Shown here one piece after another: positions 866-61,582 of a stretch of DNA of 64,000 nucleotides. The DNA comes from a virus. The notes below the pieces were generated by a model. It was not told the DNA's origin. It saw only the letters and a program-made list of their open reading frames with translations, and did not search any database. Position numbers and translations under genes: made by a program. Each line of letters begins with the position of its first letter. The stretch's first letter is position 1. Location: IMG/VR virus record IMGVR_UViG_3300012798_000001, positions 1-64,000 of that record, one strand, 5' to 3'.

Positions 866-2523
866 TCCACGTCGTCCTCGGTCCACCGACCGCAGGGAAA
901 TCGACCTACGTCCGCCAGCACGCCGCCGAGGGCGACGTGATCGTGGACTATGACGCCATCGCGCAGGCGCTCGGCTTTCCCGAGGAGCACGACGCCGATG
1001 GCTCGATCCGCCTCGTCACCCGGTCGGCGCGGGCTGGCGCCATCAACCGGGTCATGGACGGGCTCGACCACGACGCTTGGATCATCGGCACCAATCCGAA
1101 GCCGGCCCGGCTTCGTGCCTACGCCCGAGCTGGCGCGGACTTCACCGTGATCGACCCCGGCCAGGAGGAGTGCCTCCGGCGGGCCAAGCAGCAGGGTCGG
1201 CCGCCGGGCGTCTTCGTGGCAATCAATGACTGGTACGCCGCTCCGCCGGTCCTACCGGGCACAGAAGAAGGGCCAAAGGCGATGCCGAGATCGAGTACCG
1301 CAGTCGCCGACATGGCCGATGCCGTCTATGACGCGGTCAAGGTCTATGTCGGGCGTGAGGTCGGTGGCGTGAAGCCCCAGCTCGTCTCGCTACAGCGCGA
1401 CCTCGACGCCGCAGTGACGATGCTGTCGGTCACGGAGGCGGAGTTGAAGGAGGCCCGCGCCGACGCTGCGACGGCCCGAGCCGAGACCGCGGAGATCCGT
1501 GTCGTCGCCAACGGCCTCGTCGAGCGGTTGGGCGAAGTCATGGAGCGGCTGTCCATCCTGGAGGCCAGGGCGCCCGTTGCCGGCCCTGCGGGGCCCGCTG
1601 GAGCCGATGGCGCCCCAGGGGCGCCCGGTCCCAAGGGCGACCCCGGCGAGGCCGGCCCAGCGGGCCCCCAGGGGCCGCCCGGCCAAGACGGCCTGGCCGG
1701 CCCCCGAGGGGAGCGCGGCGAGGCCGGTCCGCAGGGCCCGGAGGGGCCGGCGGGCCGCGACGGCCAGGACGGGGCGCCTGGGCCTGCTGGCGCGCCTGGA
1801 GAGGCGGGTCCCGCGGGTCCGCAGGGGCCGGAGGGCCCGGCTGGCCAGGACGGGGCCCCTGGGCCCGCTGGCGCGCCCGGCGAGGCCGGTCCGGCTGGTC
1901 CCCAGGGGGAACAAGGGCAGGCAGGGCCGGCGGGCCTGGACGGCGCCCCTGGCGCGCCCGGCGAGGCCGGTCCGGCTGGCGAGGCTGGCCCGGCTGGCCC
2001 CCAGGGCGAGAAGGGCCTGGACGGGGCCCCTGGCCGCGACGGGCGGGATGGCGTCCAAGGGCCGCAGGGCGAGCGTGGCTTGCCCGGTCCCCAGGGCGAG
2101 GCCGGTCCGATCGGCATGCGCGGCGAGCGCGGCGAGAAGGGCGACCCTGGCCGCGACGGTGCCAGCGTCCACAGCATCGACCTCACGACCCCGGATGGCG
2201 GCCGGACGTTCGTCTTCAGCATCGAGGGCGGCGACGAGGTGCTGGTCAACGAGATCCAGACCCGCACGACGATCTGGCAGGGCATCTACGAGGAGGGCCG
2301 GACCTACCAGCCCGGCGACATCGTCACCCTCGGCGGCTCCTGGTGGCACTGCAACCTGGAGACCACCGAACGGCCCGGTGAGGCCAAGGCGGCCTGGAGC
2401 CTCACGGTCAAGCGTGGCCGCGACGGCAAGGACGGCAAGAACGGCGAGCGCGGCGAGCGCGGGCCGCAGGGCCCGGCGGGGCGTGACCTGACGCAGATCG
2501 CTCCGGATGGGAGCAAGTTCTGA
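862..2523 (+). CDS. P-loop kinase-like domain / coiled coil / collagen-like repeat / CBM-like C-terminal fusion protein
   Basis: Single 553-aa ORF. It has a Walker A 'GPPTAGKST' in the first ~130 aa, then a heptad-like Ala/Glu/Leu segment, ~64 uninterrupted G-X-Y triplets, and a globular tail '[27 protein letters not shown]'. A second 8-triplet GXY run follows. Confidence 0.8.
1582..2160 (+). repeat. collagen-like Gly-X-Y coding repeat (~64 triplets)
   Basis: '[37 protein letters not shown]...[13 protein letters not shown]' reads without interruption. Nucleotide units such as ggcgcgcccggcgaggccggtccggctgg recur. Confidence 0.9.
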
Positions 2524-32840: not shown

Positions 32841-32917
<77 letters not shown>

Positions 32918-34570: not shown

Positions 34571-34644
34571 TGGATCGGGCGGCTGGATTCGAACCAACGT
34601 TGCAGGGACCAAAGCCCCGTGTCCTACCGCTAGACGACGCCCGA
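34571..34644 (-). tRNA. tRNA-Gln(UUG), CCA encoded
   Basis: Hand-folded. Has U1-A72, D arm GTCT..GGAC, anticodon arm CGGGG-CTTTGGT-CCCTG and T arm GTTGG-TTCGAAT-CCAGC. Confidence 0.8.
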
Positions 34645-34745: not shown

Positions 34746-34834
34746 TGGCGGAAGGGGGGAGGATCGAACTCCCGCGAGGACTGGCCCCGGCTACGGTCTA
34801 GCAAACCGACGCATTACCGCTCTGCCACCCTTCC
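34746..34834 (-). tRNA. tRNA-Ser(GCU), CCA encoded
   Basis: Acceptor GGAAGGG/CCCTTCC, anticodon loop TTGCTAG, variable arm CGGGG-CCAGT-CCTCG, T arm GGGAG-TTCGATC-CTCCC. Confidence 0.75.
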
Positions 34835-39997: not shown

Positions 39998-40017
39998 GTT
40001 CACGGTCGCCCCCCTCC

Positions 40018-41133
40018 TCAACCGACTTCCCGGAAGCGCTCGCGCATCTTGCGCGCCACGCCCTGCTGCAGGATCGCCTTCTTGGCCTCCTTGCAATACC
40101 GATCGACCTCGGACAGGGTCTCGTGCCCGGTCACGGTCATGATCTCGTGCGGAGTGCAGCCGGCCTCGGCCAGCCGCCGCGCTGCCGCCTTGCGCAGGCC
40201 ATGCGACACGCACCGGTCGGGAAGCTTGGCGCCGTCGAAGTTGGAAGCCATCCAGACGCTCAACCGATAGCCGGTAAAGGGCTGGTGGATGCCGTTGAGC
40301 AGGATGTGCTGGTGGATGTCGGTCGGAACCTTGTCCCGCTCGCATGTGGCCCGCCACGCATCCAGCGCCTCGATCAGTTCGGGCTCGCAGTTGATGTTGA
40401 GGGTCTTGTCCTTCTTCTCGCCCTTGGCCTTTTTCTGCTGGACCGTCATGGTCGCCCGGCGGACGCCCTCCTTGTCGGTCCAGAAGCGCACATCGGTCCA
40501 CTTCATCTTGGCCACGTCGGTCACGCGCTGGCCGGACCAGACGAAGAGGGCGAAGGCCGTCCGCTCCCGCGTCCCGACCTTCCACCGCTCCTCGTACTTC
40601 GCGATCTCCTGCTCGTTCCAAGTGTGGTGACTGCCGAGTTCCAGTTTTTCGATGCCCTCGGTCGGGTCCTCCTTGATCCACTGGCGCCGCTTGGCGAACT
40701 TCACCAGTTGGCGAATCGCCTTGAGCAGGTTGCTGTGCTGACCCGGCCGGTCGTGATAATCGGCGAAAAACTGCTCGATCTTGGCAACCGGCGTGCCCTG
40801 AACCGACCTGTGGCCAAACTGCCGGCAGAAGATGTTGAGCATGCGGGTCGTCTTCATCCGCGACGCCGGGCCCTGCTTGCCGAGCCCCACCGCCAGGAAG
40901 TCCTTCACGGCGGCATTCCAGGTCGTGAGCCCCGTGCTGGTCTTCATCACCTCGGGCTGCGGGGTCTGCTGGGGCGCGAAGCCGAGCGCCATGTTGTACT
41001 GCGCCATGAACTCGGGCGAGCCCGGCTTGCCGATCAGCTTCACCGCCTTCCGTTTGGGGTAGCGGAAATATGACCGCTCGCGGCCATGCCGATCGATGAA
41101 GGTGTTCACGTATTTGAGTTTGACGATCGTCAT
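40018..41133 (-). CDS. int: tyrosine integrase
   Basis: 371 aa. The C-terminal 'HGLRKAAARRLAEAGCTPHEIMTVTGHETLSEVDRYCKEA' carries the H-x-x-R ... H ... Y catalytic pattern. N-terminal arm-type domain 'VKLKYVNTFIDRHGRERSYFRYP'. Confidence 0.9.
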   Translation of the reverse strand: MTIVKLKYVNTFIDRHGRERSYFRYPKRKAVKLIGKPGSPEFMAQYNMALGFAPQQTPQPEVMKTSTGLTTWNAAVKDFLAVGLGKQGPASRMKTTRMLNIFCRQFGHRSVQGTPVAKIEQFFADYHDRPGQHSNLLKAIRQLVKFAKRRQWIKEDPTEGIEKLELGSHHTWNEQEIAKYEERWKVGTRERTAFALFVWSGQRVTDVAKMKWTDVRFWTDKEGVRRATMTVQQKKAKGEKKDKTLNINCEPELIEALDAWRATCERDKVPTDIHQHILLNGIHQPFTGYRLSVWMASNFDGAKLPDRCVSHGLRKAAARRLAEAGCTPHEIMTVTGHETLSEVDRYCKEAKKAILQQGVARKMRERFREVG

Positions 41134-41139
41134 TGCGGG

Positions 41140-41370
41140 TCACCCCACGAACGAGGCTTGCCGCTGGATGCTGTCCAGCGTGCGGTGATAGTGCTCCAGG
41201 AAGGCCCGCTCGCCAGGGCGGCCGGGAATGCGGATTCTGACCGTCACCGGCCGGGCCGGCTCCGGGTCCAAGTCGGCCTGGCCGCGCATCGGCGTGTAGG
41301 TCGCGACGAAGTAGTAGAGGGTGCCGCCGTTGGGGCCGTCATAGGCCCGCAGATGCTTCAATTGCGTCAT
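41140..41370 (-). CDS. small protein resembling an integrase N-terminal (arm-binding) domain
   Basis: 'LRAYDGPNGGTLYYFVATYTPMRGQ...IRIPGRPGERAFLEHYHRTL' parallels the int N-terminus '...KLIGKPGSPEFMAQYNMAL'. Confidence 0.45.
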   Translation of the reverse strand: MTQLKHLRAYDGPNGGTLYYFVATYTPMRGQADLDPEPARPVTVRIRIPGRPGERAFLEHYHRTLDSIQRQASFVG

Positions 41371-41389
41371 TTTATGATCTCCGGGTTGT

Positions 41390-41427
41390 GGGCACTTATT
41401 CGTGCCCTGGGGCACACATTAGTGCCT
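41390..41427. promoter_or_regulatory. two adjacent operator-like palindromes (GGGCAC-N6-GTGCCC; GGGGCAC-N6-GTGCCtC)
   Basis: Copies 3a and 3b of the motif seen at 20458 and 37335, upstream of the 41370 start. An extra half-site lies at 41465. Confidence 0.55.
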
Positions 41428-41482
41428 CACCCCGGAGATCCGGAAGGGCTTTTTTTACAAACCTAGGGCACGCCTGTGAGAC

Positions 41483-41752
41483 CTAGGCGTCATCCCAGGA
41501 GTCGTCGCGGGCCGGCGCGTCCAGATACCAGGGCCCGCCATCGTGGGGGATGGCCCGGTAGGCGGCCCGCAGCTCGGTGGCGTCCCACGTCTTCACCCCG
41601 CCGAGGATGCGCGGCGGCGGCATCTTCCGCTCCTTGATCAGGGCCCGGAACGTCGTCACGCCGACCCCGACGAAGGCCGCGGCCTCGTTGATCTGGAGGC
41701 CGAGGATGCACGGCAGCTTTTCCAGCGCTTCACTCCGGTCGACCTTCTTCAC
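41483..41752 (-). CDS. excisionase-like HTH protein (AlpA/MerR superfamily)
   Basis: 'ILGLQINEAAAFVGVGVTTFRALIKERKMPPPRILGGVKTWDATEL'. Lies upstream of int. Confidence 0.65.
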   Translation of the reverse strand: MKKVDRSEALEKLPCILGLQINEAAAFVGVGVTTFRALIKERKMPPPRILGGVKTWDATELRAAYRAIPHDGGPWYLDAPARDDSWDDA

Positions 41753-41931
41753 CTATGCCTCCCTGCGCTTGTAGCGTAGAACTCCGGATCGGCGGCGATG
41801 TAGTCGAAGACATCGCCATAGTTCAGCCCGAGCCGCTCATGGATCATCATCCAGTGCGCGCCCTCGGGGAGGTCCAGCTCGTTGACCTCCTCGATCACGT
41901 CGCGGACCCGGTCCTTGGTCGGACGGTTCAT
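41749..41931 (-). CDS. hypothetical protein
   Basis: 60-aa ORF, ATGA-coupled. Confidence 0.45.
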   Translation of the reverse strand: MNRPTKDRVRDVIEEVNELDLPEGAHWMMIHERLGLNYGDVFDYIAADPEFYATSAGRHR

Positions 41932-41933
41932 GG

Positions 41934-42416
41934 CTAGGTCGTCTTGCGCCGGGCGCGGCGCTCATTGGCCTTGACCACGAACTCCATCTCGCTCGCATAG
42001 ACCTCTCCGTGCCCGAGCGAGATGAAGCCGAGCGGCGATTTCACGGCGATTTCGCAATCGTCGCGGCCCGGATCGTAGTCGCCATAGAGCGTGAGCGGCA
42101 CAAGGCAGCCGGAGTCCGACCACTCAATCGGCAGGCGCCAGCCGACAATCGGGAGGCGGAGGATTTCGGGCTTATCGCTCCTGTCGTTCGGCGGGAAGTA
42201 GATGACCGCCGAGAGGCTCGGATCGGCGTTGGGGAAGACGGCCAGCCCGGCCGTCTCATTATGATGCACCACTGTTTCCCACAGCTCTTTGAGCGCCACT
42301 TCCCCGCCGCTCTTCAACTGCGCGAAAGCCCATTCCTGAGCGCCAACCTGACGAGGGAACACGCACACGATGCTGTCGGGATTGTACAGCGTTGAACCGC
42401 CAAGAAATTTGGCCAT
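41934..42416 (-). CDS. hypothetical protein
   Basis: 160-aa ORF. Confidence 0.55.
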   Translation of the reverse strand: MAKFLGGSTLYNPDSIVCVFPRQVGAQEWAFAQLKSGGEVALKELWETVVHHNETAGLAVFPNADPSLSAVIYFPPNDRSDKPEILRLPIVGWRLPIEWSDSGCLVPLTLYGDYDPGRDDCEIAVKSPLGFISLGHGEVYASEMEFVVKANERRARRKTT

Positions 42417-42419
42417 TGA

Positions 42420-42587
42420 TCACTCCTGTCCCATGTCCATGGGGTTTGCCCGGAGCACCGCTTGCAGCAGCGCAACTGCACCGCGGGCGCCCGTGATGAT
42501 CTCGCGTTGCCCGGCGGACAATTTCCGGAGCTGCGTGACCTCGGCACGAAGCATCATGATCTCGTCCGCCATCTGTGGACCGGTCAT
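42420..42587 (-). CDS. hypothetical helical protein
   Basis: Internal start 'MTGPQMADEIMMLRAEVTQLRK'. Confidence 0.4.
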   Translation of the reverse strand: MTGPQMADEIMMLRAEVTQLRKLSAGQREIITGARGAVALLQAVLRANPMDMGQE

Positions 42588-42643
42588 CTCGCTGATGCTC
42601 GGCCAGTCGCGGCCGGGTTTCCGCGACGGCGCGGCAGGCCGGG

Positions 42644-43144
42644 TCACAGGCCGGCCAGGAAGCGGTGCAGCTTCTCGATCGCCATCGGCTGGTCGATCGC
42701 CCGGCACTCTTCCTCGATCGGCTTCGTCTTCTTGGCTTCCGTGGCGCTCTCGATCAGGCCGAGCAGTGCCCGGCCGCCGTTATAGGTGGCGCGCGCCCCG
42801 ACCGAGAGGACCGAGGGATCGCGGACCGTGGCGAGTTCGAGCCGGCCGGTGCGGGCGGTGCTATGGATGCGGCGCCGCCGCATCTCGGGAATGTCCAGCG
42901 CGGTATCGAGCGCCTCCCGGCGGCGGATGCCGACGAAGCGGATGGTCTCGAACAGGATGCGCTCGTCGCGCACCAGCTTGACCCGCACGTCTTGCAGGAC
43001 ATGGCGAATGCCACGGATCGGCTCGCCGACGATCCCGTCGAGGTGCTCATACGGAACGAGTACGCCTGGCGCGATCGTGAGCAGGAACTTCTTCAAGGCG
43101 GCGCGTTGGGCGGCGCGGGCCGGGTTGTCGTAAAGCGGCATCAT
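42644..43144 (-). CDS. hypothetical protein
   Basis: Start 'MMPLYDNPARAAQ' follows GGAGGA (alternative ATG at 43168). The longer 316-aa frame runs into repeat DNA. Confidence 0.5.
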   Translation of the reverse strand: MMPLYDNPARAAQRAALKKFLLTIAPGVLVPYEHLDGIVGEPIRGIRHVLQDVRVKLVRDERILFETIRFVGIRRREALDTALDIPEMRRRRIHSTARTGRLELATVRDPSVLSVGARATYNGGRALLGLIESATEAKKTKPIEEECRAIDQPMAIEKLHRFLAGL

Positions 43145-43199
43145 GTCCACGGGGTCCTCCGAGATCATGTCGCAAAGAGAGGCGGCGGGATGCGGTGCG

Positions 43200-43544
43200 T
43201 TGGGTGGCGACGCGGGAAGAAGCGAAGAGCTGCGACGGACTGCGAGGCGGGAACTTGAATTGCGGCGTGCGGAACTGCGGGGCGTAGAGCCGGGTAGCGG
43301 GGCGTCGATGTAGTTCAGGAGGTGTCGGGCTGGCGTTCGCTCATGGGCAGAGACCGTGAGTTGCGGAGTGGAGCGATGCGGCGGGCGACGATGCGTTGCG
43401 AAGCGACGCGGAGCGATTCGAAGAGAAGCGGCGCGTGGCGGCGCAATATTCGGGACGTGCCGGCGGGCGATCATGTTGCGATGCGGAGAGCAGCGGTGCG
43501 ATGCGTTCCGGTGCGCATAGCAGCGACGCGGGGAAAAGCGGTTG
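43200..43544. repeat. degenerate ~100-bp repeat block R1 (G-rich on + strand)
   Basis: Units such as 'ttcaggaggtgtcgggc...gcggagtggagcgatgcgg' and 'attcgggacgtgccggcgggc...gcgatgcggagagcagcggtgcg'. Confidence 0.6.
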
Positions 43545-44117
43545 TCAGGCTTTGACCGCGATCTCCTCCATCCCCAGCACCTTGAAACGGCCATACCAGC
43601 CGCCCTTGGCCGGCCGATACCGGCCGATGCCGATCACGAGGCCGATGGTCTGGACGACCTTCAGCATCACGTCGGGGGTCAGGATCTCGTCGGAGATGGT
43701 GTAATCGACGGTCGCCCTCCACTCGGGCATCGTCGGGAACCACCGCCAGACCCGCTTGCCGCTTCCGCGGACTCCGTCCACGTTGCAGAACACCCGCTCG
43801 GGCTGGACATCAGCGGCATCGATATCGAGGACGACCGGCGCATAGACACCCTGGCCGCAGAGCACCTTGGTGGCCCAGGTCTTGTTCCCCTGGCCTTTGA
43901 TCTTCTCTCCGGCGTAGCGGGCCGCCTCGTCGGCTCCAAATTTGAACGCGGCCGGCGGGATGAAGACCTTGCCCTGATCGGTGGTGTGGAGCTTGAGCGG
44001 CCACGTCCGCTTGTCGTAGGCGTCCTCCTGCTCCTTCGGGAGCTTGGGCTCCTCATGGGCGCGGCTCTGGCTGTAGGGCGTGACGCCTTCGATCTGGAAG
44101 CGATAGACCTTGACCAT
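43545..44117 (-). CDS. hypothetical 190-aa protein flanked by repeat blocks
   Basis: Clean ORF 'MVKVYRFQIEGVTPYSQSR...RYRPAKGGWYGRFKV' with a CCCGGAGAG SD. Confidence 0.65.
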   Translation of the reverse strand: MVKVYRFQIEGVTPYSQSRAHEEPKLPKEQEDAYDKRTWPLKLHTTDQGKVFIPPAAFKFGADEAARYAGEKIKGQGNKTWATKVLCGQGVYAPVVLDIDAADVQPERVFCNVDGVRGSGKRVWRWFPTMPEWRATVDYTISDEILTPDVMLKVVQTIGLVIGIGRYRPAKGGWYGRFKVLGMEEIAVKA

Positions 44118-44755
44118 CTGATTCTCTCCGGGATTGAGGTTGGGTTGCGAAGCGGGGCGGCGCGCGGCAGCGGGGCGCAGTGCGCGGCGATGCGCTGGGG
44201 CGCGACGTCAAGTTGTATCGGGTTGAACGAATCTCAGGTGGTGACCTTGCGTTGCGAAGATGTGCGGTGCGCATCGTAGAGAGGCAGAGCGAGGCGCAGC
44301 GGGGCGCTGAATTGAGTTGCGCGGCGGTGCGCGGCATCGCTTAAGACGTATCGGGGCGGCTGAATTCCATGGGGACCTTGAGGTGCGGTGCGCAAAGCAG
44401 CGGGGGGTTGCGCGGCGTCGCGACGCATTGAGCGGCGGAGCGTGGCGCGGTTGAAACTCGTGGGGACATTGCGGAGCGGGACGATGCGGCACGCCGGGGG
44501 GAGAAGCGGTGCGCAGCGGAGCGCGGCAGGGCGATGCGCTGTCAGGTCAGGACGTGTCGTGGCGGATGGCCGTCATTGATGGGAACCTTGCGTCGTGAAG
44601 CGTAACGGTGGGCGGCGGAGCGGCGAGTGGCGCAGCGGTGCGCAGCGTAGCGGCGCCATTCAGGACGTGTCCGGGCAGTTGAATTCCACGTTGGGACCTT
44701 GCGAAGCGGAGGGATGAGAAGCGGCGTGCGGCGGAGCGTGGAGATGCGATCAGAG
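44118..44755. repeat. degenerate ~95-125-bp tandem repeat block R2 (5-6 units)
   Basis: Recurring core 'TCAGGACGTGTC..(~10)..TGAATTCCA..GGGGACCTTGCG' followed by GCG-rich tracts. Cores lie near 44232, 44360, 44452, 44575 and 44677. Confidence 0.7.
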
Positions 44756-45010
44756 TCACCGAACCCGTTTCAGCCCGATCTCCTTCACCGTCTCGAACTC
44801 CATGCCGAGGCGGCGGCGGACCTCGTCCTTGCTCCAATACAAGATGTGCCAGCAGGACCGGATATCCGGCATCTCAGCGGCTCGGCCCATCTCTGCATAG
44901 GTCACGATCTCGCCGAGCGGGGTCTTGGCCAGCAGGGCGACGAGGCCCTTGCGCTGGTCCAGGCGGGGCCGGCTCGGCTTGCGGATGGTCGCGATGCCCA
45001 GGCTGTCCAT
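44756..45010 (-). CDS. hypothetical protein
   Basis: 84-aa ORF. Confidence 0.5.
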   Translation of the reverse strand: MDSLGIATIRKPSRPRLDQRKGLVALLAKTPLGEIVTYAEMGRAAEMPDIRSCWHILYWSKDEVRRRLGMEFETVKEIGLKRVR

Positions 45011-45012
45011 TC

Positions 45013-45531
45013 CTACCTCCTAAGCGATGCTTCCTGGCTCTCCCGGTCGCGCAGGGACCGGTAGGAGTCGGAGAGCTTGATCCAAATGGCGGCGGCGTCT
45101 GGGTCGCGGTCCAGGTCGCGCCGGCTCTTGCAGCCGCAGATTCGCCGGACCTGATCGGCCGCCGCCTCCTCGTCATCGACCCGGAGCCACTTCTGGAAGC
45201 CGGGCTCCTTGCAGAGGATGCCGGCCTGCTTGGTGAACGACAGCTTGTGCCAGGGCGTCCGCTCCGGCTCGGCCCCCGCCGGCTTCGACGATGCCGGCCC
45301 TGGGGTCGGCGCCGGGTCCGTCCACTCCGGGCCAGCCTCCGCCTGCGCCTGCTCCGGATTGAGCAGCACGATCGCGCAGGCCCGCGACTTCGCCGCGGTC
45401 GGCACCCCGCCGAGCCGCTTGAGGATCTCGTCGGCGTCCTCGATCGGGGACTCGAAGAACAGCCGGATCACGGACCGCGTCTGGTAGGTCTTGAAGTCGA
45501 CGAAGTCGGCGCTGAAAGGCTGGCCGGTCAC
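45013..45531 (-). CDS. hypothetical protein
   Basis: GTG start in a GTGA overlap with the upstream gene. 172 aa. Confidence 0.5.
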   Translation of the reverse strand: MTGQPFSADFVDFKTYQTRSVIRLFFESPIEDADEILKRLGGVPTAAKSRACAIVLLNPEQAQAEAGPEWTDPAPTPGPASSKPAGAEPERTPWHKLSFTKQAGILCKEPGFQKWLRVDDEEAAADQVRRICGCKSRRDLDRDPDAAAIWIKLSDSYRSLRDRESQEASLRR

Positions 45532-45746
45532 CGCCCGACCTCCAAGAGCCGGGTGATCGTGAAGCCGCGCCGCTCCAGGCACTCGATCGCGTAGCTGGCC
45601 TCCGCGAGATATCCGGTATAGGTGCCGTCCGCGTCGTCGAGGGCGATGTCCGCCTTGCAGGCGCGGAACCGCTCGCCCTTGCCGTCGATGATGGCCCAGA
45701 CCTCGGCCAGGGCTTCGGACGCCTCGCGGCGCGAAGTGCCGGTCAC
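45528..45746 (-). CDS. hypothetical protein
   Basis: 72-aa ORF, coupled. Confidence 0.5.
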   Translation of the reverse strand: MTGTSRREASEALAEVWAIIDGKGERFRACKADIALDDADGTYTGYLAEASYAIECLERRGFTITRLLEVGR

Positions 45747-46627
45747 TGCCCCACCTCCATCGGCGTCGCGGCCAAGGTCTCGGCATCGGTGATCAGGTCG
45801 ATGGCCCAGCTCCGCTCCGGGTCGGTTGCTGCCCAGCCCCGGATCGCCTGGACGGCGTCCCGGTTCTCTTGGATCTCGATCAGCTTCCGGTTGGTGCCGA
45901 GGCCGCGGATCAGATTGGTCAGGAAGTCGCGGGCGCCGGCTCCATTGGCCTTGAACTTCCGCTCGACGACCCGGCCGGTGAACGTGTCCGGCGGGAAGGT
46001 CAGGATGAAGTGCCGGCCCGTGTCGGCGCCGTCGCCCTCGGCCTCCTGGGGCCGCTGGGCTTGCGGTGGCGGCGGCGAGGCCGCCGGGCCAGGGTTCGGC
46101 CTGGCGTCGGCCTGGCGGCGCCCCTGGCCGCCCTGTGCGCCCTGGCGGAGGGCGTCGCGGGTGGCGTTGGCGACACGGTCGCGGACGTAACTGCCGGCTC
46201 CGGTGTCCATCGCCGCGGCACCGTCATCGTCCTCATCGGCCGTGAGCCCAACGGTGGCGCCGAATGCATACCGTTTCGCATAGGTGATTGCGCTGCCCAT
46301 CTGCTGGACATTGAACTCGCGGCCGAGGATGACCGGGATCTCGGTTTCGAGCCATTGGCCGCTAGAGTGCATAAGGATCGTCGTCACGACGATTTGCCCA
46401 TCGGCGTTGACTTCCGGCGCCTGCGTGAAGCCGATGCCGTTCGCGCTCAAGGCCGACCGAGCCGCGTCGATCAGGGCGTCCAGGGTCGCATAGCGCCACG
46501 ACTTGCCGCCGCCGCCTCCCTTGCCCTCGCCGCCGGCCCCCCGATCCTTCTTCGGATTGGTCATGGCACCTTGCGCTGCGGCCAAGGCTGCCGCGATCTG
46601 GTCGATGCCTTCGGGGCTCTTCTTCAT
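45743..46627 (-). CDS. ERF-family single-strand annealing recombinase
   Basis: 'WRYATLDALIDAARSALSANGIGFTQ...TTILMHSSGQWLE...QQMGSAITYAKRYAFGATVGLTADEDDDG'. Confidence 0.8.
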   Translation of the reverse strand: MKKSPEGIDQIAAALAAAQGAMTNPKKDRGAGGEGKGGGGGKSWRYATLDALIDAARSALSANGIGFTQAPEVNADGQIVVTTILMHSSGQWLETEIPVILGREFNVQQMGSAITYAKRYAFGATVGLTADEDDDGAAAMDTGAGSYVRDRVANATRDALRQGAQGGQGRRQADARPNPGPAASPPPPQAQRPQEAEGDGADTGRHFILTFPPDTFTGRVVERKFKANGAGARDFLTNLIRGLGTNRKLIEIQENRDAVQAIRGWAATDPERSWAIDLITDAETLAATPMEVGQ

Positions 46628-46628
46628 C

Positions 46629-47135
46629 TCACTTCCCCCGTACGGACAGCGTGGGCTCGGCGTTGCTCAACTCGGCGCCGTCCACCGTCTCGCCGGCCTC
46701 GATCGCCTCGTGGATGGCCGACTTCACCGGGGTCCGCTCGGTCTTGCAGAACCGGTCGGGAATGCGCTCGGCATCGGTGATGACGACCTTGCGCCGGCCC
46801 TTGGCCATGGTCAGGGTCGCCTCGGGGAACTCGAACCGCTTCCGGCCCGCGGCATTCATCGCCGCCTGCACCAGGAGCTTCTTCCGCTGGGCCCGCTCGG
46901 TCAGCCGGGCCGCCCGGCCCTGCATCTCGTCGACCCGGATCGACAGCGCCGCGACCATGGCCTTGTCGTCCAGGTGGGAGCAGATCAGGGCCCGGCACCG
47001 CTCCGGGAAGTCGGAGATGCCGTCGAGGGTGTCGGTCAGGGTCGGCTCGTCATCGGCCAGGGAGGGGAACTCCCGCAGCAGCGCCTCGCGGAGCGCGGCA
47101 TCGGCTGCGGCGTCATTGTCCAAGCGTCCGTTCAT
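46629..47135 (-). CDS. Gp157-like protein
   Basis: 169 aa, helical, directly upstream of ERF. The pattern 'LADDEPTLTDTLDGISDF...DEMQGRAARL' resembles the siphovirus Gp157 family. Confidence 0.55.
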   Translation of the reverse strand: MNGRLDNDAAADAALREALLREFPSLADDEPTLTDTLDGISDFPERCRALICSHLDDKAMVAALSIRVDEMQGRAARLTERAQRKKLLVQAAMNAAGRKRFEFPEATLTMAKGRRKVVITDAERIPDRFCKTERTPVKSAIHEAIEAGETVDGAELSNAEPTLSVRGK

Positions 47136-47320
47136 GGCTTCATCCCGAGTGCGATGTAGGCGAGCGGTATCCCCCACAGGGCCAGGGCGACCCCGGCGGC
47201 GAGGATCACGGTGCCGAAGACGATCTCCGCGGGGCCCGACCGGCAGATGGGCGACAGCACCAGCGCGGCCCCGAAGGTGATCAGGAAGGTGGCGCTCATG
47301 ATGAGGATCACGCTGGTCAT
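47132..47320 (-). CDS. small two-TM membrane protein
   Basis: 'MTSVILIMSATFLITFGAALVL...VILAAGVALALWGIPLAYIAL'. Confidence 0.5.
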   Translation of the reverse strand: MTSVILIMSATFLITFGAALVLSPICRSGPAEIVFGTVILAAGVALALWGIPLAYIALGMKP

Positions 47321-47322
47321 GG

Positions 47323-47526
47323 CTACCACCCGCTCACGGCGATTTTGGCGGCGGCGACGATCCACATCAGGCCGATGAAGACCAGGACGATCAGGGTGGC
47401 GGCGGCCCGGTCACCCGGCGTCCAGCGGCGGGAGCCGCCGTGGACCATGTTCGCGATCATCAGGGCCAGGAAGAACCCGGCGAGGAAGGAGCCCGTGGCG
47501 GCCGAGGCGGCGAGGATGACGTTCAT
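47323..47526 (-). CDS. small two-TM membrane protein
   Basis: 67-aa ORF with hydrophobic helices. Confidence 0.5.
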   Translation of the reverse strand: MNVILAASAATGSFLAGFFLALMIANMVHGGSRRWTPGDRAAATLIVLVFIGLMWIVAAAKIAVSGW

Positions 47527-47717
47527 TGCGCGGCTCCGAACAGATCGAGGCGGAGCAGCACGAGGAAGATGACGACGAGCACGATCCCGCAGATCGCCAT
47601 CACTCGGTCGAGCGTGGTCCAGGTGATGCGGCCCCGCACGATGGCCAGGATCAGGCCCATCGCGAAGTAGGCGATAACGAAACTGGCGGCGCCGTAGAAC
47701 AGGTCAGGCGCGCTCAC
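47523..47717 (-). CDS. small two-TM membrane protein
   Basis: GTGA-coupled GTG start. 'AASFVIAYFAMGLILAIV...ICGIVLVVIFLVLL'. Confidence 0.45.
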   Translation of the reverse strand: MSAPDLFYGAASFVIAYFAMGLILAIVRGRITWTTLDRVMAICGIVLVVIFLVLLRLDLFGAAQ

Positions 47718-48061
47718 GGCATCTGCTCCCGCCGGACCATGGCTCGGGTCCGGTCCCGCTCGACGGCGTCGTCCCGGCTCTCCTCCAGCCACCAGCGATG
47801 GGCGGCGGAGATGTCGAACGGCGACCACACGATCCGGCCGGGGGCGCCGGCCTCGACCACCTCCATCACCCTCGCGGCGGCGATGACATCGAGCCCGGCC
47901 TCGCTCTCGTCATAGGCGAGGCAGGCATCGTCGTACCGGACATACATCGAGACCGAGGGCTTCTGCTCCTGCGAGCACCACCAGATCAGGACATAAAGCG
48001 GGGGCATGGCGCGCATACCGGTCTCCGGTTGCACCCTGCGAGGGCGGGTTGTCTGGGGCAT
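47714..48061 (-). CDS. hypothetical protein, first gene of early-left operon
   Basis: 115-aa ORF with AGGA 6 nt upstream. Confidence 0.5.
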   Translation of the reverse strand: MPQTTRPRRVQPETGMRAMPPLYVLIWWCSQEQKPSVSMYVRYDDACLAYDESEAGLDVIAAARVMEVVEAGAPGRIVWSPFDISAAHRWWLEESRDDAVERDRTRAMVRREQMP

Positions 48062-50779: not shown

Positions 50780-51094
50780 ATGCGGGTCGAGGTCACCAAC
50801 GTCCGTCAGGGGCTCGAAGCCCAAGGCTTCCGGCTCCGCTCCTACAACCCCGGCGAGCACCACTCGGTCTGCCCGAGGTGCAGCCCCACCAGGACGAAGA
50901 AGCATGCCCGATGCGTCTCAATCCGGATCGAACCAGACGGAGCCACATGGCGGTGCCACCACTGCGGATGGGGCGACGGCTTCCGGCTACACGGCGATCA
51001 GCCGCGCCGTCGAGAAGTGGTTCATCAGCCGGGGAATCCACCACGGCGCCCTTCGGGCTGGCGGCGTCTTTTCGGAGGCTCGGGGCGGGTCTGA
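50780..51094 (+). CDS. primase zinc-ribbon domain ORF (frame-separated from the Toprim/helicase body)
   Basis: 'CPRCSPTRTKKHARCVSIRIEPDGATWRCHHCGWGDG', after which the frame degenerates into Arg/Pro-rich sequence. Confidence 0.55.
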   Translation: MRVEVTNVRQGLEAQGFRLRSYNPGEHHSVCPRCSPTRTKKHARCVSIRIEPDGATWRCHHCGWGDGFRLHGDQPRRREVVHQPGNPPRRPSGWRRLFGGSGRV

Positions 51095-52457
51095 GGTGAT
51101 CGTCTTCCCCTATCGCCGCCGTGGCCGGGTCGTGAACCAAAAATACCGCGGCGCCGGGAAGAAGTTCTGGATGGCTGCAGGCGGCGAGCTGGTCCTGTGG
51201 AACCTGGATTGCCTGCTGTCGAACCCGGATCACGTCTACATCGTCGAGGGCGAGATGGACGCCCTGGCCTTCATGGAGGCCGGGATCTGGAATGTGCTCT
51301 CGGTCCCCAACGGCGCGCCCCCGCCGGAGCGGGAGGACGAGGTCGTCGAGCCGGAGCACGACGAGACGTTCCGCTACCTGTGGAACTGCCGGGAGGAGCT
51401 GGCCGGCATCCGCTTCGTCCTGGCCGGCGACAGCGATGCGGCCGGGATCAAGCTGCGGCACTCGCTGGTGTCCCGCCTCGGCCGCGCCAACTGCGACATC
51501 GTCGATTGGCCCGAGGGTGTCAAGGACGGCAACGACTACCTCCTGGAGGTCGGGCCGGCCGCCTTCGCCGAGTATGTGCGGGCCAGCCGCAAGCCCTACC
51601 CCATCCGCGGCCTGTGGGGGTGGAACGAGGTCCAGCCGACCCCGCCGATGGAGAGCTTCGACATCGGCATCCCGCTGCTGCGCCAGCACGTCCGCCTCGC
51701 CCGCGGCACCGTCTCGGTGGTCACCGGCATCCCGAACCACGGCAAGAGCGCGCTGTGGAAGGCCATCGCCTGCCAGATGATCAAGAACCACGGTTGGAAC
51801 GTCACCGCGGCCAGCTTCGAGGATCAGGTCTACGCCAACCTCATGCCCGAGCTGCTCCGGATCATGAGCGGCCAGGGCCCATCGCAGGAGCCGTGGATCT
51901 GCCAGAAGCGAGCCGACGCGGCCCGCCTCCTGGCCAAGCACTTCTCCTTCATCGCCGACGAGGGCTATGTCGAGGAGCCCATGACCTTGGAGTGGTTCGT
52001 GGGCATGGCGCGGGACGCGAAGGTCCGCTTCGGCACCGACTTTCTGGTCGCCGACCCGTGGAATGAGATCGAGCACCTCTGGGGCCGCGATCAGAACGAG
52101 ACGCAGTACATCGGCACCGGGTTGCGCGATCTGAGGCGCCTGTCGGTCGAACTCGACATGCACATCATGATCATCGCCCACCCCCACAAGGTGCTCGATG
52201 GGCAGGCGCCTGGGCTCTACCACATCAACGGGTCGGCCCATTGGGCGAACAAGGTCGATATCGGCCTCGTCGTGCATCAGCCCAACTTCGCCGAGGGCCC
52301 AGGCGGCCCGACCGAGGTCTATGTCCGCAAGATCAAGCGCCCGGTGCTCGGCCAGCGCGGGATCGTGACGGTCCAGTTCAACGCGGCCACCGGCTCCTTC
52401 GAAGCCCCGTCCGGCCGACCCTTCGACGACCCCGACATCGAGAGGACCGCAGCATGA
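50904..52457 (+). CDS. bifunctional Toprim primase / DnaB-like helicase (T7 gp4/Twinkle-like)
   Basis: Toprim motif 'VYIVEGEMDALAF...VLAGDSDAAG', Walker A 'VVTGIPNHGKSAL' and Walker B 'FLVADPW'. The sensible sequence begins only around 'AISRAVEKWFISRGI' (~51000). Confidence 0.8.
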   Translation: MPDASQSGSNQTEPHGGATTADGATASGYTAISRAVEKWFISRGIHHGALRAGGVFSEARGGSEVIVFPYRRRGRVVNQKYRGAGKKFWMAAGGELVLWNLDCLLSNPDHVYIVEGEMDALAFMEAGIWNVLSVPNGAPPPEREDEVVEPEHDETFRYLWNCREELAGIRFVLAGDSDAAGIKLRHSLVSRLGRANCDIVDWPEGVKDGNDYLLEVGPAAFAEYVRASRKPYPIRGLWGWNEVQPTPPMESFDIGIPLLRQHVRLARGTVSVVTGIPNHGKSALWKAIACQMIKNHGWNVTAASFEDQVYANLMPELLRIMSGQGPSQEPWICQKRADAARLLAKHFSFIADEGYVEEPMTLEWFVGMARDAKVRFGTDFLVADPWNEIEHLWGRDQNETQYIGTGLRDLRRLSVELDMHIMIIAHPHKVLDGQAPGLYHINGSAHWANKVDIGLVVHQPNFAEGPGGPTEVYVRKIKRPVLGQRGIVTVQFNAATGSFEAPSGRPFDDPDIERTAA

Positions 52458-59061: not shown

Positions 59062-59893
59062 CGGTTCTCTCCGGGTTCGATTCACTAGGGGTTCGTCGAT
59101 CTACTAGGGGGGTGCTGCCGCCGCCGGCCAGCCTGGAGGGCCTCGGGCCCGGCCCGGCCGGCCGCTCGTCGATCGACCGGGGGTGGGCGTCGACCGACCG
59201 GGGGGTGTGGTCGTCGATCGACCGGGGGGTCGTCGACCGACCGGGGGGTGTCCGGGGGGTCGGGGGTGTGTCCCGGCCGCCACAGTCTCCGATCGGAGAC
59301 AGGGGGTGTCTCCCGGCCGCCACACTGCGGCCAGGCCGAGACAGGTGTGGCCGGCCGGACACGTGTCCGCCGGGTGACACACTCGCCAGGGTTGGGCAAC
59401 CCCGCCCCTACCACAAGCCGGGCTTGGTGATCCCGATCCGAGCCACCAGCCGGGCCAGCCCAACCGGGCCGCCGGGTTCCACATCGACTTCGTGGCGATC
59501 TCAACCGCCCCACAAGGGCCCGCGCCAGGGGGCCGGCGGCCCGGCCGGCGCTGGCCCCAGGCGGGCCCCGGCCAAGGCGGCCCCGCCCCGGCCCTAGCTG
59601 GGGATCGCGGGCCCGCCATGGGGCCAGGGCCGCCACAGGGCCACCAGGGCCACCACAGGGGCCGCCGGGGCGGGCCATGGCCACCAGGGCCGGGGCTTGG
59701 CCCCGCCCGGCTTGCACAGGCGGCCCTACGGGGCCCGCGCGGGCCATGGCTGGTGGTAGGGTACGCGAAAGGCGGGCCGGCCCTGTAGAGCCACGACAAC
59801 GCGGCACAGGGGCTCGGCCCCACCAGGGCCACCAGCCCAGGGCCACCAGGGCCCGGCCAGGGGCGGCCCTTGGGCCCGCCTGGACGAGCCACG

Positions 59894-59920
59894 GCCCCGC
59901 GCGGCGCTAGCCGGCGGGGC
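59894..59920. repeat. conserved two-tier hairpin H1
   Basis: GCCCCGC-G-CGGC-GCTA-GCCG-GCGGGGC. Confidence 0.6.
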
Positions 59921-60010
59921 TGGGCTGGGGCTGGTGGTGGCATGGGGCTGGGCCCCGCCATGGCGCGCTCCTGGCAAGGGGCCGGCGCTGGCCGGCCCTG
60001 GCACCAGCAA

Positions 60011-60039
60011 AGCCCCGCGCGGCGCTAGCCGGCGGGGCT
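60011..60039. repeat. conserved two-tier hairpin H2
   Basis: AGCCCCGC-G-CGGC-GCTA-GCCG-GCGGGGCT, 22 nt downstream of the 60062 stop. Confidence 0.6.
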
Positions 60040-60061
60040 TGGTGTGGCTGATGGGGCTCGC

Positions 60062-61484: not shown

Positions 61485-61536
61485 TTTCTTTCTCCGGGTT
61501 GCGGGCCGCCTGGATCGGGGCCCTTGCACTGCCTTG

Positions 61537-61563
61537 GCCCCGCGCGGCGCTGGCCGGCGGGGC
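61537..61563. repeat. conserved two-tier hairpin H4
   Basis: GCCCCGC-G-CGGC-GCTG-GCCG-GCGGGGC. Confidence 0.6.
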
Positions 61564-61582
61564 TGGGCTGGTGGCGGCCCGC

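Follow-up and report, generated by a model that had tools for sequence, protein, structure and literature searches.

The subject of this report is a 64,000 nt stretch of viral DNA (IMG/VR record IMGVR_UViG_3300012798_000001, positions 1 to 64,000; hereafter the window), and in particular the segment at 42644-44755, in which a gene for a 190 aa protein lies between two non-coding blocks, R1 and R2. This segment is very probably a VIPR (Viral Interference Programmable Repeat) system of a temperate phage, comprising a vipr gene, a vap-like gene for a putative winged-helix protein and approximately ten candidate vrRNA units. VIPR itself has been known since 2026; the locus is a previously unannotated member of that class, with CGC as its conserved triplet, or handle.

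According to the text of the two preprints in which VIPR was first described in 2026 (10.64898/2026.04.26.720920, 10.64898/2026.04.26.720927), such systems consist of a minimal RAMP protein of ~20 kDa (Vipr), a small vap gene and ~100 nt vrRNAs that occupy long intergenic regions flanking vipr. Each vrRNA is reported to contain 9-16 YNNGG pentamers, in which GGY is conserved and NN hypervariable, followed by an invariable 3′ tail, and each pentamer is bound by one Vipr protomer with GGY flipped out and NN presented. The resulting filament reads double-stranded DNA by skipping one nucleotide at a time and forms an R-loop triplex, thereby repressing transcription in competing phages, prophages and satellites. 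The text distinguishes seven types, gives variant consensus forms (NNNGG, YNNNG and NNNNG), allows 'a related consensus' and describes vrRNAs as often internally degenerate. In the Vipr of Escherichia phage SUSP1, D177 reads G1 and R138 reads G2. Targets were sought with nhmmer at ≥80 % NN match, with no self-targets in the systems described, and VIPR, with its non-contiguous code, has been proposed as an ancestor of CRISPR RAMP effectors (10.64898/2026.04.26.720920, 10.64898/2026.04.26.720927). The SUSP1 locus sequence itself bears (NN-GGT)n tracts in the orientation of vipr: one precedes vipr and three follow vap.

As the original prediction had proposed from the sequence, two non-coding blocks of roughly 400 and 640 bp flank the 190 aa gene (400 bp for R1 and 638 bp for R2), and neither harbours any codon signal, whereas the surrounding minus-strand genes display a clear one in the GC content of third codon positions (GC3). 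The reported excess of G over C on the plus strand is likewise borne out, with GC skew reaching +0.40 in R1 and +0.34 in R2, and standing at ~0 in the enclosed gene. Whilst units of the predicted ~100 bp do exist, the basic repeat is not of this size but is a pentamer, (NN-CGC)n when read on the minus strand, where vipr and all surrounding genes also lie. Around ten tracts of 9-19 such pentamers are distributed over the two blocks; the GCG-rich tracts noticed earlier are present, but their strict pentamer phasing had been overlooked. Autocorrelation of GCG peaks only at lags of 5, 10, 15 and so on to 30 within the blocks, with values of 16-19 at these lags against 0-5 at others in R1, and of 20-30 against 0-12 in R2, and there is no such pattern in the enclosed gene. 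The motif GCGNNGCGNNGCGNNGCG, allowing ≤1 mismatch, matches 46 times in the window, 44 of these falling within 43098-44748 and all on the plus strand; shuffled sequence yields a mean of 9.0 matches, and none of 100 shuffles reaches 46. Across 131 aligned pentamers the three handle positions carry 1.41 (C), 0.86 (G) and 1.51 (C) bits of information, whilst the two N positions stand at background (0.04-0.05 bits), with all 16 dinucleotides represented.

Most tracts are followed by a tail of variable length (20-50 nt) which begins with AAGGTCCC and, in its full versions, ends with GACACGTCCTGA on the minus strand, this pair being common to the tails. Individual motifs recur unevenly. GGGACCTTGCG (≤1 mismatch) occurs five times in R2, at 44241, 44372, 44463, 44582 and 44693 (a spacing of 91-131 bp), with two copies in the rest of the 64 kb; TCAGGACGTGTC (≤1 mismatch) lies at 43315, 44547 and 44660, and with 2 mismatches at 43450; and TGAATTCCA is present in two copies and no more. 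Of the earlier claim that at least eight units share a three-part core, the number thus holds (~10 units), but the full core is confined to just two or three of them. Tandem Repeats Finder, which had been suggested for defining the units, returned only short, low-scoring rows and missed the real organisation. The arrays fill their intergenic gaps fully, with the last unit of each (U6 and D4) extending into the ribosome-binding site of the next gene. Neither promoter-like (sigma-70) sites nor intrinsic terminators were found inside the blocks, and no Rfam family or ribozyme was detected in 43000-44900, whether at the gathering score or at E-values up to 1, so that there are no hammerheads between the units. 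Window tracts end in …CGC AA GGTCCC, and AAGGTTCCC is also found in a relative of the GTC type (L029); the tract end may represent a conserved 3′ capping or processing signal.

The protein encoded between the blocks would ordinarily be annotated as hypothetical, since it has no match in Pfam, NCBIfam or PADLOC and its PHROGs family (phrog_4652) is of unknown function. To this extent the 'unknown gene' of the original prediction stands, but its RAMP nature, and the accessory gene beside it, had been missed. The Foldseek comparison then proposed for 43545..44117 proved informative: the AlphaFold2 (AF2) model, with a predicted local distance difference test (pLDDT) score of 93.5, has as its top matches the RAMP backbone subunits Cas7, Csm3 and Cmr4 (E ~1e-7). 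From this model the protein is confidently predicted to be a minimal Cas7-like RAMP with a single RRM core, a thumb (DGVRGSGKRVWR) and a G-loop (GIGRYRPAKGGWYGRF). A profile built from 31 members of the family identifies one non-trivial match in the PDB, namely 36pp, 'SUSP1 Vipr protein' (hmmsearch, E 1.2e-7; E 0.014 with the single 190 aa sequence), and hhalign against the SUSP1 Vipr product (GenBank KT454805.2) gives 96 % probability and an E-value of 4.3e-9 over the region spanning thumb, helix and G-loop. Invariant family motifs are PYSxSR, DGVRGSGKRVWR and GIGRFRPxNGGxYGRF, and invariant residues include G163, G165, R166, R168, G173, G176 and R177 of the G-loop and G115-R122 of the thumb. 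In the alignment SUSP1 W178 corresponds to Y167, and R179 to R168.

With regard to the accessory gene, in 67 of 82 related viral loci vipr is immediately followed by a homologue of the 166 aa vap-like gene. Comparison of its family profile with SUSP1 Vap1 by hhalign returns 66 % probability (E 5.7e-5 over 101 columns), and homology to Vap1 is only moderately supported. The AF2 model (pLDDT 74.6) displays an H-E-H-H-E-E topology within its first 75 residues; its Foldseek matches are weak and are all winged-helix regulators, and the DNA-binding domain of methylguanine methyltransferases is matched weakly as well. The model therefore suggests an N-terminal winged-helix-like domain joined to a helical C-terminal domain, and the likeness of the gene to vap1 suggests, tentatively, VIPR type II or one of its neighbours.

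Hundreds of Vipr relatives (40-50 % identical) are found in metagenomes and viral contigs, and with one genome taken for each GTDB species the best match is 49 % identical. The family extends across Alpha- and Betaproteobacteria, Cyanobacteria, Myxococcota, Bacteroidota and candidate phyla, Devosia riboflavina and Paracoccus litorisediminis being two of its carriers. A set of 115 loci was compared (82 from IMG/VR and 33 from GTDB genomes, with Vipr relatives 33-51 % identical), tracts being counted from -1.5 kb to +2.5 kb relative to the gene. Phased pentamer tracts adjoin the vipr homologue, on the same strand, in 89 of the 115. The triplet is CGC in 48 loci, GGC in 25 (relatives within the protein clade of the window), CTC in seven, CAC in four, GAC in three, and CGA and GTC in one each, the raw sequence having been inspected for every kind except GAC. 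Examples of this variation are provided by L040 (4946-4983), L062 (5600-5657), L015 (4715-4822), L029 (5430-5520) and L108 (2620-2931). A neighbour-joining tree built from 72 typed proteins requires at least 13 triplet switches, and CTC, CAC, GAC and GTC lie outside the consensus forms that the preprint text names (YNNGG, NNNGG, YNNNG and NNNNG). In GGC-type relatives, as in SUSP1, GGY lies on the vipr coding strand, and tract ends run in parallel between the types, with …CGC AA CGC AA CG-T corresponding to …GGC AA GGC GA GG; the RNA of the window should therefore read CGC-NN. Nearly all CGC-type relatives have tracts ending in …CGC AA CGC AA CG(T/A) (L001, L002, L005, L013, L020, L021, L031 and others), and tails differ wholly between relatives whilst the pentamer tract is kept. 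Residues that might track the triplet were also sought: protein columns 108, 112, 170 and 172 split CGC from GGC loci, with CTC loci grouping with GGC, but this signal is inseparable from phylogeny and was set aside.

This variation bears on the earlier suggestion of extended Rho-utilisation or antitermination regions, in which a C-rich, G-poor and unstructured RNA would load Rho and so control whether the enclosed and downstream genes are expressed. The minus-strand RNA does have this composition (plus-strand skew of +0.3 to +0.4), the operon location lacks intrinsic terminators, and the RNA of the blocks is less structured than shuffled sequence, since four of six units fold less well than their shuffled versions, with z of +1.1 to +2.1, whilst two lie near zero (z -0.2 and -0.6). 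Rho loading, however, needs neither an exact 5 nt phase maintained over 50-90 nt, nor a triplet with free NN, nor cassette turnover of the kind described below, and it leaves the strict linkage to a RAMP gene unexplained. Moreover, because relatives with the same architecture use the G-rich GGC, or CTC, CAC and GAC, C-richness is not the conserved property; the C-rich, G-poor and unstructured RNA on which the suggestion draws is a side effect of building guide tracts from (NN-CGC)n. A primary role in Rho loading is therefore highly improbable, although the blocks may exert a secondary polar effect. Several other ideas arose early in the analysis: a TRAP-like RNA-binding ring (the first lead, from periodicity alone), a spacing of YC dinucleotides suited to Rho, AGCGG clusters giving Chi-like protection from AddAB, sites used by the annealing protein Erf encoded nearby, and repeats that code for pentapeptides. 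All were dropped because the protein is a Vipr-family RAMP and the tracts of relatives carry other triplets.

Turnover of the arrays can be followed in a close relative, a 1.6 kb Logan contig (L084, from SRR26290455) that was compared with window 42849-44212. Its Vipr is 99 % identical to that of the window at the amino acid level, and the flanking genes are 94-96 % identical in nucleotide sequence. The contig nonetheless harbours one additional complete unit between the U6 homologue and vipr, and a further one immediately after vipr; D1 is 100 % identical, whilst the 5′ half of D2 has been replaced. The U6 homologue itself is 93 % identical, with four of its five differences at NN positions, and across all alignable tracts mismatches affect 7 of 100 NN positions (7 %) against 3 of 154 triplet positions (1.9 %). 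This is the pattern expected of an exchangeable guide set: guide units are gained, lost and replaced in cassette-like fashion between phages that are 94-96 % identical in their flanking genes.

The same comparison counts against clustered sites for proteins that bind double-stranded DNA, whether iteron- or centromere-like, as proposed earlier, or parS-like, and against a host repetitive extragenic element. Repeated ~100 bp units with conserved minus-strand cores (AAGGTCCC and GACACGTCCTGA) would suit such sites, as would the near-palindromic GGACACGTCC. The bulk of each unit, however, is a tract in which three of five bases are conserved and the others are random, at background; whole units turn over between near-identical phages; tails change completely among relatives whilst the tract persists; and no partition or replication-initiator gene adjoins the blocks (Pfam and PHROGs). 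The pentamer pattern is, furthermore, essentially confined to the blocks within the 64 kb. A DNA-site origin is accordingly highly improbable. It had also been considered that the repeats might prove unconserved, or to be a known host repeat; instead, the arrays are kept beside the gene in distant relatives, and they are not a host-wide repeat. The remaining early suggestion, a series of processed small RNAs, is the one that the evidence favours, as the ~100 bp units have the size and build of vrRNAs (tract plus 3′ tail) and lie beside a Vipr-family gene.

A number of observations weigh against the assignment to VIPR, the first of them concerning targets. An offline comparison of 195 guides with 0.8 Mb of related loci, using skips of 0-3, gave neither an excess over shuffled guides nor a match of ≥85 % at any skip from 0 to 2; an excess at a skip of 3 was traced to unmasked homologous arrays. 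No self-target was better than those of shuffled guides, which agrees with the account that the preprint gives of its own systems and speaks for VIPR. Seven of eight exact-match, one-base-skip scans of public collections were empty: U2 (two scans), U4, D2 and clean guides from L013 and L005 had no match in viral contigs, and D1 had none in genome contigs. The eighth, U3 against metagenomes, found an exact seed match of 11 NN on two homologous contigs (L086 1170-1201 and L087 856-887), within a DsbA-like gene (PF01323) in a cellular, non-phage context. Over the whole guide 24/28 NN positions agree, which would satisfy the 80 % threshold given in the preprint, but only 2/6 do so in the flanks outside the seed. 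This match is probably due to chance, for it does not extend past the seed, skips a base at codon position 1 and has surroundings that are not phage-like; a rough estimate places the expected number of chance matches at ~0.05-0.1 for the U3 scan and ~0.5 over all scans. The absence of targets is itself a weak negative, because exact matching is far less sensitive than the nhmmer search at ≥80 % NN described in the preprint.

The remaining points against VIPR concern the RNA and the protein. The window triplet is CGC and does not conform to the GGY of the SUSP1 and Pseudomonas fulva systems; an exact CGC is found in just 62 % of the 131 pentamers, with two of three bases matched in 33 %, and some window units may have decayed. 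RNAalifold finds no consensus secondary structure in eight tails, which are unstructured, whereas the SUSP1 tail is a pseudoknot. Likeness to SUSP1 Vipr is restricted to the C-terminal 79 columns, and in the alignment the SUSP1 residues D177 and R138 are replaced by R166 and F127, respectively; since these positions read G1 and G2 in SUSP1, recognition of CGC must differ in detail. Taken together, the missing targets under a one-base-skip rule, the 38 % of triplets that are degenerate, the loss of the guanine-reading residues, the unstructured tails and a sole exact match in a cellular DsbA-like gene could be accommodated by a VIPR-derived locus which follows a different rule or is partly decayed, with another skip length, an RNA target, or regulation of its own or host genes, and with several units surviving as relics. 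We regard this as unlikely. The sensitivity of the exact scans falls far below that of the published search, frequent internal degeneracy of vrRNAs is reported in the preprint too, the DsbA match (without extension, with its skip at codon position 1) is within chance expectation, and the fold elements that set the gapped geometry, the thumb and G-loop, are conserved.

A VIPR system is also the reading best served by comparison with described systems. Like those of SUSP1 and of the P. fulva prophage (type II), the window locus possesses a small Vipr RAMP of ~20 kDa, an adjoining small vap gene with a winged-helix or helix-turn-helix (HTH)-like product, and ~100 nt units on the vipr strand in long intergenic regions flanking vipr; it is phage-borne, and lacks cas genes, a CRISPR array and self-targets. 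Tracts span 9-19 pentamers against the 9-16 of the preprint, and CGC (as YNNCG) fits the variant form YNNNG. Differences are nonetheless apparent. The window has ~10 units, six upstream of vipr and four between vipr and vap, whilst SUSP1 has four, located upstream of vipr and downstream of vap; there is no promoter-like site before each unit, unlike in SUSP1 and P. fulva; similarity to SUSP1 Vipr is limited to the C-terminal half; and, unlike the sub-architecture in which vrRNA arrays are interspersed with ribozymes, no hammerheads separate the units.

With the backbone of Class 1 CRISPR-Cas (Cas7, Csm3 and Cmr4) the window protein shares a RAMP fold that includes a thumb and a G-loop. In both cases guide units stand in an array adjoining the protein gene and, by analogy, each protomer in the window system would cover a set length of RNA whose bases are flipped. 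The window protein differs in being a phage-encoded single RRM with no repeat-spacer array, cas1, cas2 or other cas genes nearby, and the period is 5 nt, two bases of each unit being informative, as against 6 nt and five. A more distant parallel is the trp leader RNA bound by TRAP (the trp RNA-binding attenuation protein) in Bacillus, in which 11 (G/U)AG triplets are separated by spacers of 2-3 nt. There, too, a triplet recurs every ~5 nt on unstructured RNA that is read by a protein oligomer, as would be the case in the window; the TRAP spacers, however, carry no information, the RNA is a regulatory target and not a guide, and the fold of the window protein is unrelated.

By analogy with the SUSP1 and P. 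fulva systems of the preprints, the transcript of the minus-strand early operon would be processed to vrRNAs of ~70-140 nt. Each pentamer would be bound by one Vipr protomer with its fixed triplet buried (CGC here, GGY in SUSP1), so that the filament would display the NN dinucleotides and might read double-stranded DNA as NNx NNx…, skipping one base per pentamer and forming an R-loop triplex. The expected outcome would be that transcription is blocked in genes belonging to competing phages, prophages or satellites, with the Vap protein possibly strengthening the silencing.

The features of the locus are collected in Table 1. It is situated in the early operon of a prophage, with erf and Gam-like genes on one side and xis and int on the other, the minus-strand genes running from ~48061 down to 40018. 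U5 may consist of two units parted at a decayed tail (AACTCAATTCAG), a subdivision read by eye from the sequence.

Table 1. Features of the candidate VIPR locus and its neighbours, in order of transcription of the minus strand
Feature	Position	Strand	Details
Gp157/Gam-like gene	46629-47177	-	Pfam/PHROGs annotation
Erf gene	45743-46627	-	Pfam/PHROGs annotation
257 aa gene, then 84 aa gene	between Erf and R2	-	
R2 non-coding block, upstream array	44118-44755	-	638 bp; wholly fills the gap between the 84 aa gene and vipr; 6, possibly 7, candidate vrRNA units
U1	44655-44750	-	Tract 44750-44701, 10 pentamers; tail AAGGTCCCAACGTGGAATTCAACTGCCCGGACACGTCCTGA; fold z = +2.1
U2	44541-44659	-	Tract 44659-44590, 14 pentamers; tail AAGGTTCCC…GACACGTCCTGAC; fold z = +2.1
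U3	44450-44540	-	Tract 44540-44471, 14 pentamers; short tail AATGTCCCCACGAGTTTCAAC
U4	44344-44449	-	Tract 44449-44380, 14 pentamers; tail AAGGTCCCCATGGAATTCAGCCGCCCCGATACGTCTTAAG; fold z = +1.7
U5	44207-44343	-	Tract 44343-44249, ~19 pentamers; tail AAGGTCACC…CAACTTGAC
U6	44118-44206	-	Tract 44206-44142, 13 pentamers; then AACCTCAATCCCGGAGAGAATCAG bearing the vipr ribosome-binding site
vipr	43545-44117	-	190 aa
R1 non-coding block, downstream array	43145-43544	-	400 bp, between vipr and the vap-like gene (measured by script as 43146-43544, 399 bp); 4 candidate units
D1	43542-43478 (tract)	-	13 pentamers; begins 3 nt past the vipr stop codon
D2	43447-43358 (tract)	-	18 pentamers
D3	~43305-43262	-	~9 pentamers, weak; read by eye from the sequence
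D4	43251-43172 (tract)	-	16 pentamers
vap-like accessory gene	42644-43144	-	166 aa
Small genes, excisionase-like HTH gene, then integrase	40018-41133 (integrase)	-	3′ of the vap-like gene

The window as a whole has a GC content of ~65 % and derives from a temperate phage or prophage, with a long block of plus-strand genes that is consistent, by gene map alone, with structural genes. No CRISPR-like repeats or arrays of identical 25-40 nt repeats were found in the 64 kb. PADLOC gave no Cas match for vipr, its vap-like neighbour or the pair of genes that immediately precede R2, and neither did Pfam or PHROGs for the gene set at 40018-47177. A megablast of 40000-48000 against GenBank phages returned no near-identical phage DNA. 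Pfam identified no clear repressor in the divergent region at 47.5-49.5 kb, whilst a gene for a Toprim and DnaB-like primase-helicase (50904-52457, plus strand) lies in the rightward operon. Three tRNA genes (32844-32917, 34574-34644 and 34749-34834, minus strand) are located between the left plus-strand block (92-32262) and the minus-strand genes. Other repeats are present in the window. Tandem repeats with an 81 nt period, rich in GGC/GGT-C, occupy 1631-2466 (plus strand) within a 553 aa open reading frame (862-2523), and resemble the Gly-X-Y stretch of a collagen-like structural protein. At 59149-59251 GTCGTCGAYCGACCGGGGGG is present in three to four close copies, and a 73 nt repeat ending in the hairpin GCCCCGCGCGGCGCTAGCCGGCGGGGCT is found in three copies (59852-59924, 59970-60042 and 61495-61567) near the right end of the window; both may be repetitive extragenic palindromic (REP)-like or terminator elements.

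For the VIPR class, the window adds an example from a high-GC prophage with ~10 guides. Within its Vipr clade the commonest handle is CGC, not GGY, and several further triplets occur alongside. It is conceivable, and is put forward here only tentatively, that the handle triplet has been re-coded repeatedly within this single clade, giving rise to mutually orthogonal handle codes. Should these prove to be true protein-RNA specificities, co-resident or competing VIPR systems would be insulated from each other's guides, the family would constitute a natural set of orthogonal programmable DNA binders, and the window would represent the commonest non-canonical handle code, CGC. Such systems can be sought in raw sequence by a simple test, namely a phase-locked XYZ-NN pentamer tract beside a gene of 185-200 aa whose product has the C-terminus GxGRxRPxxGGxxGRF.

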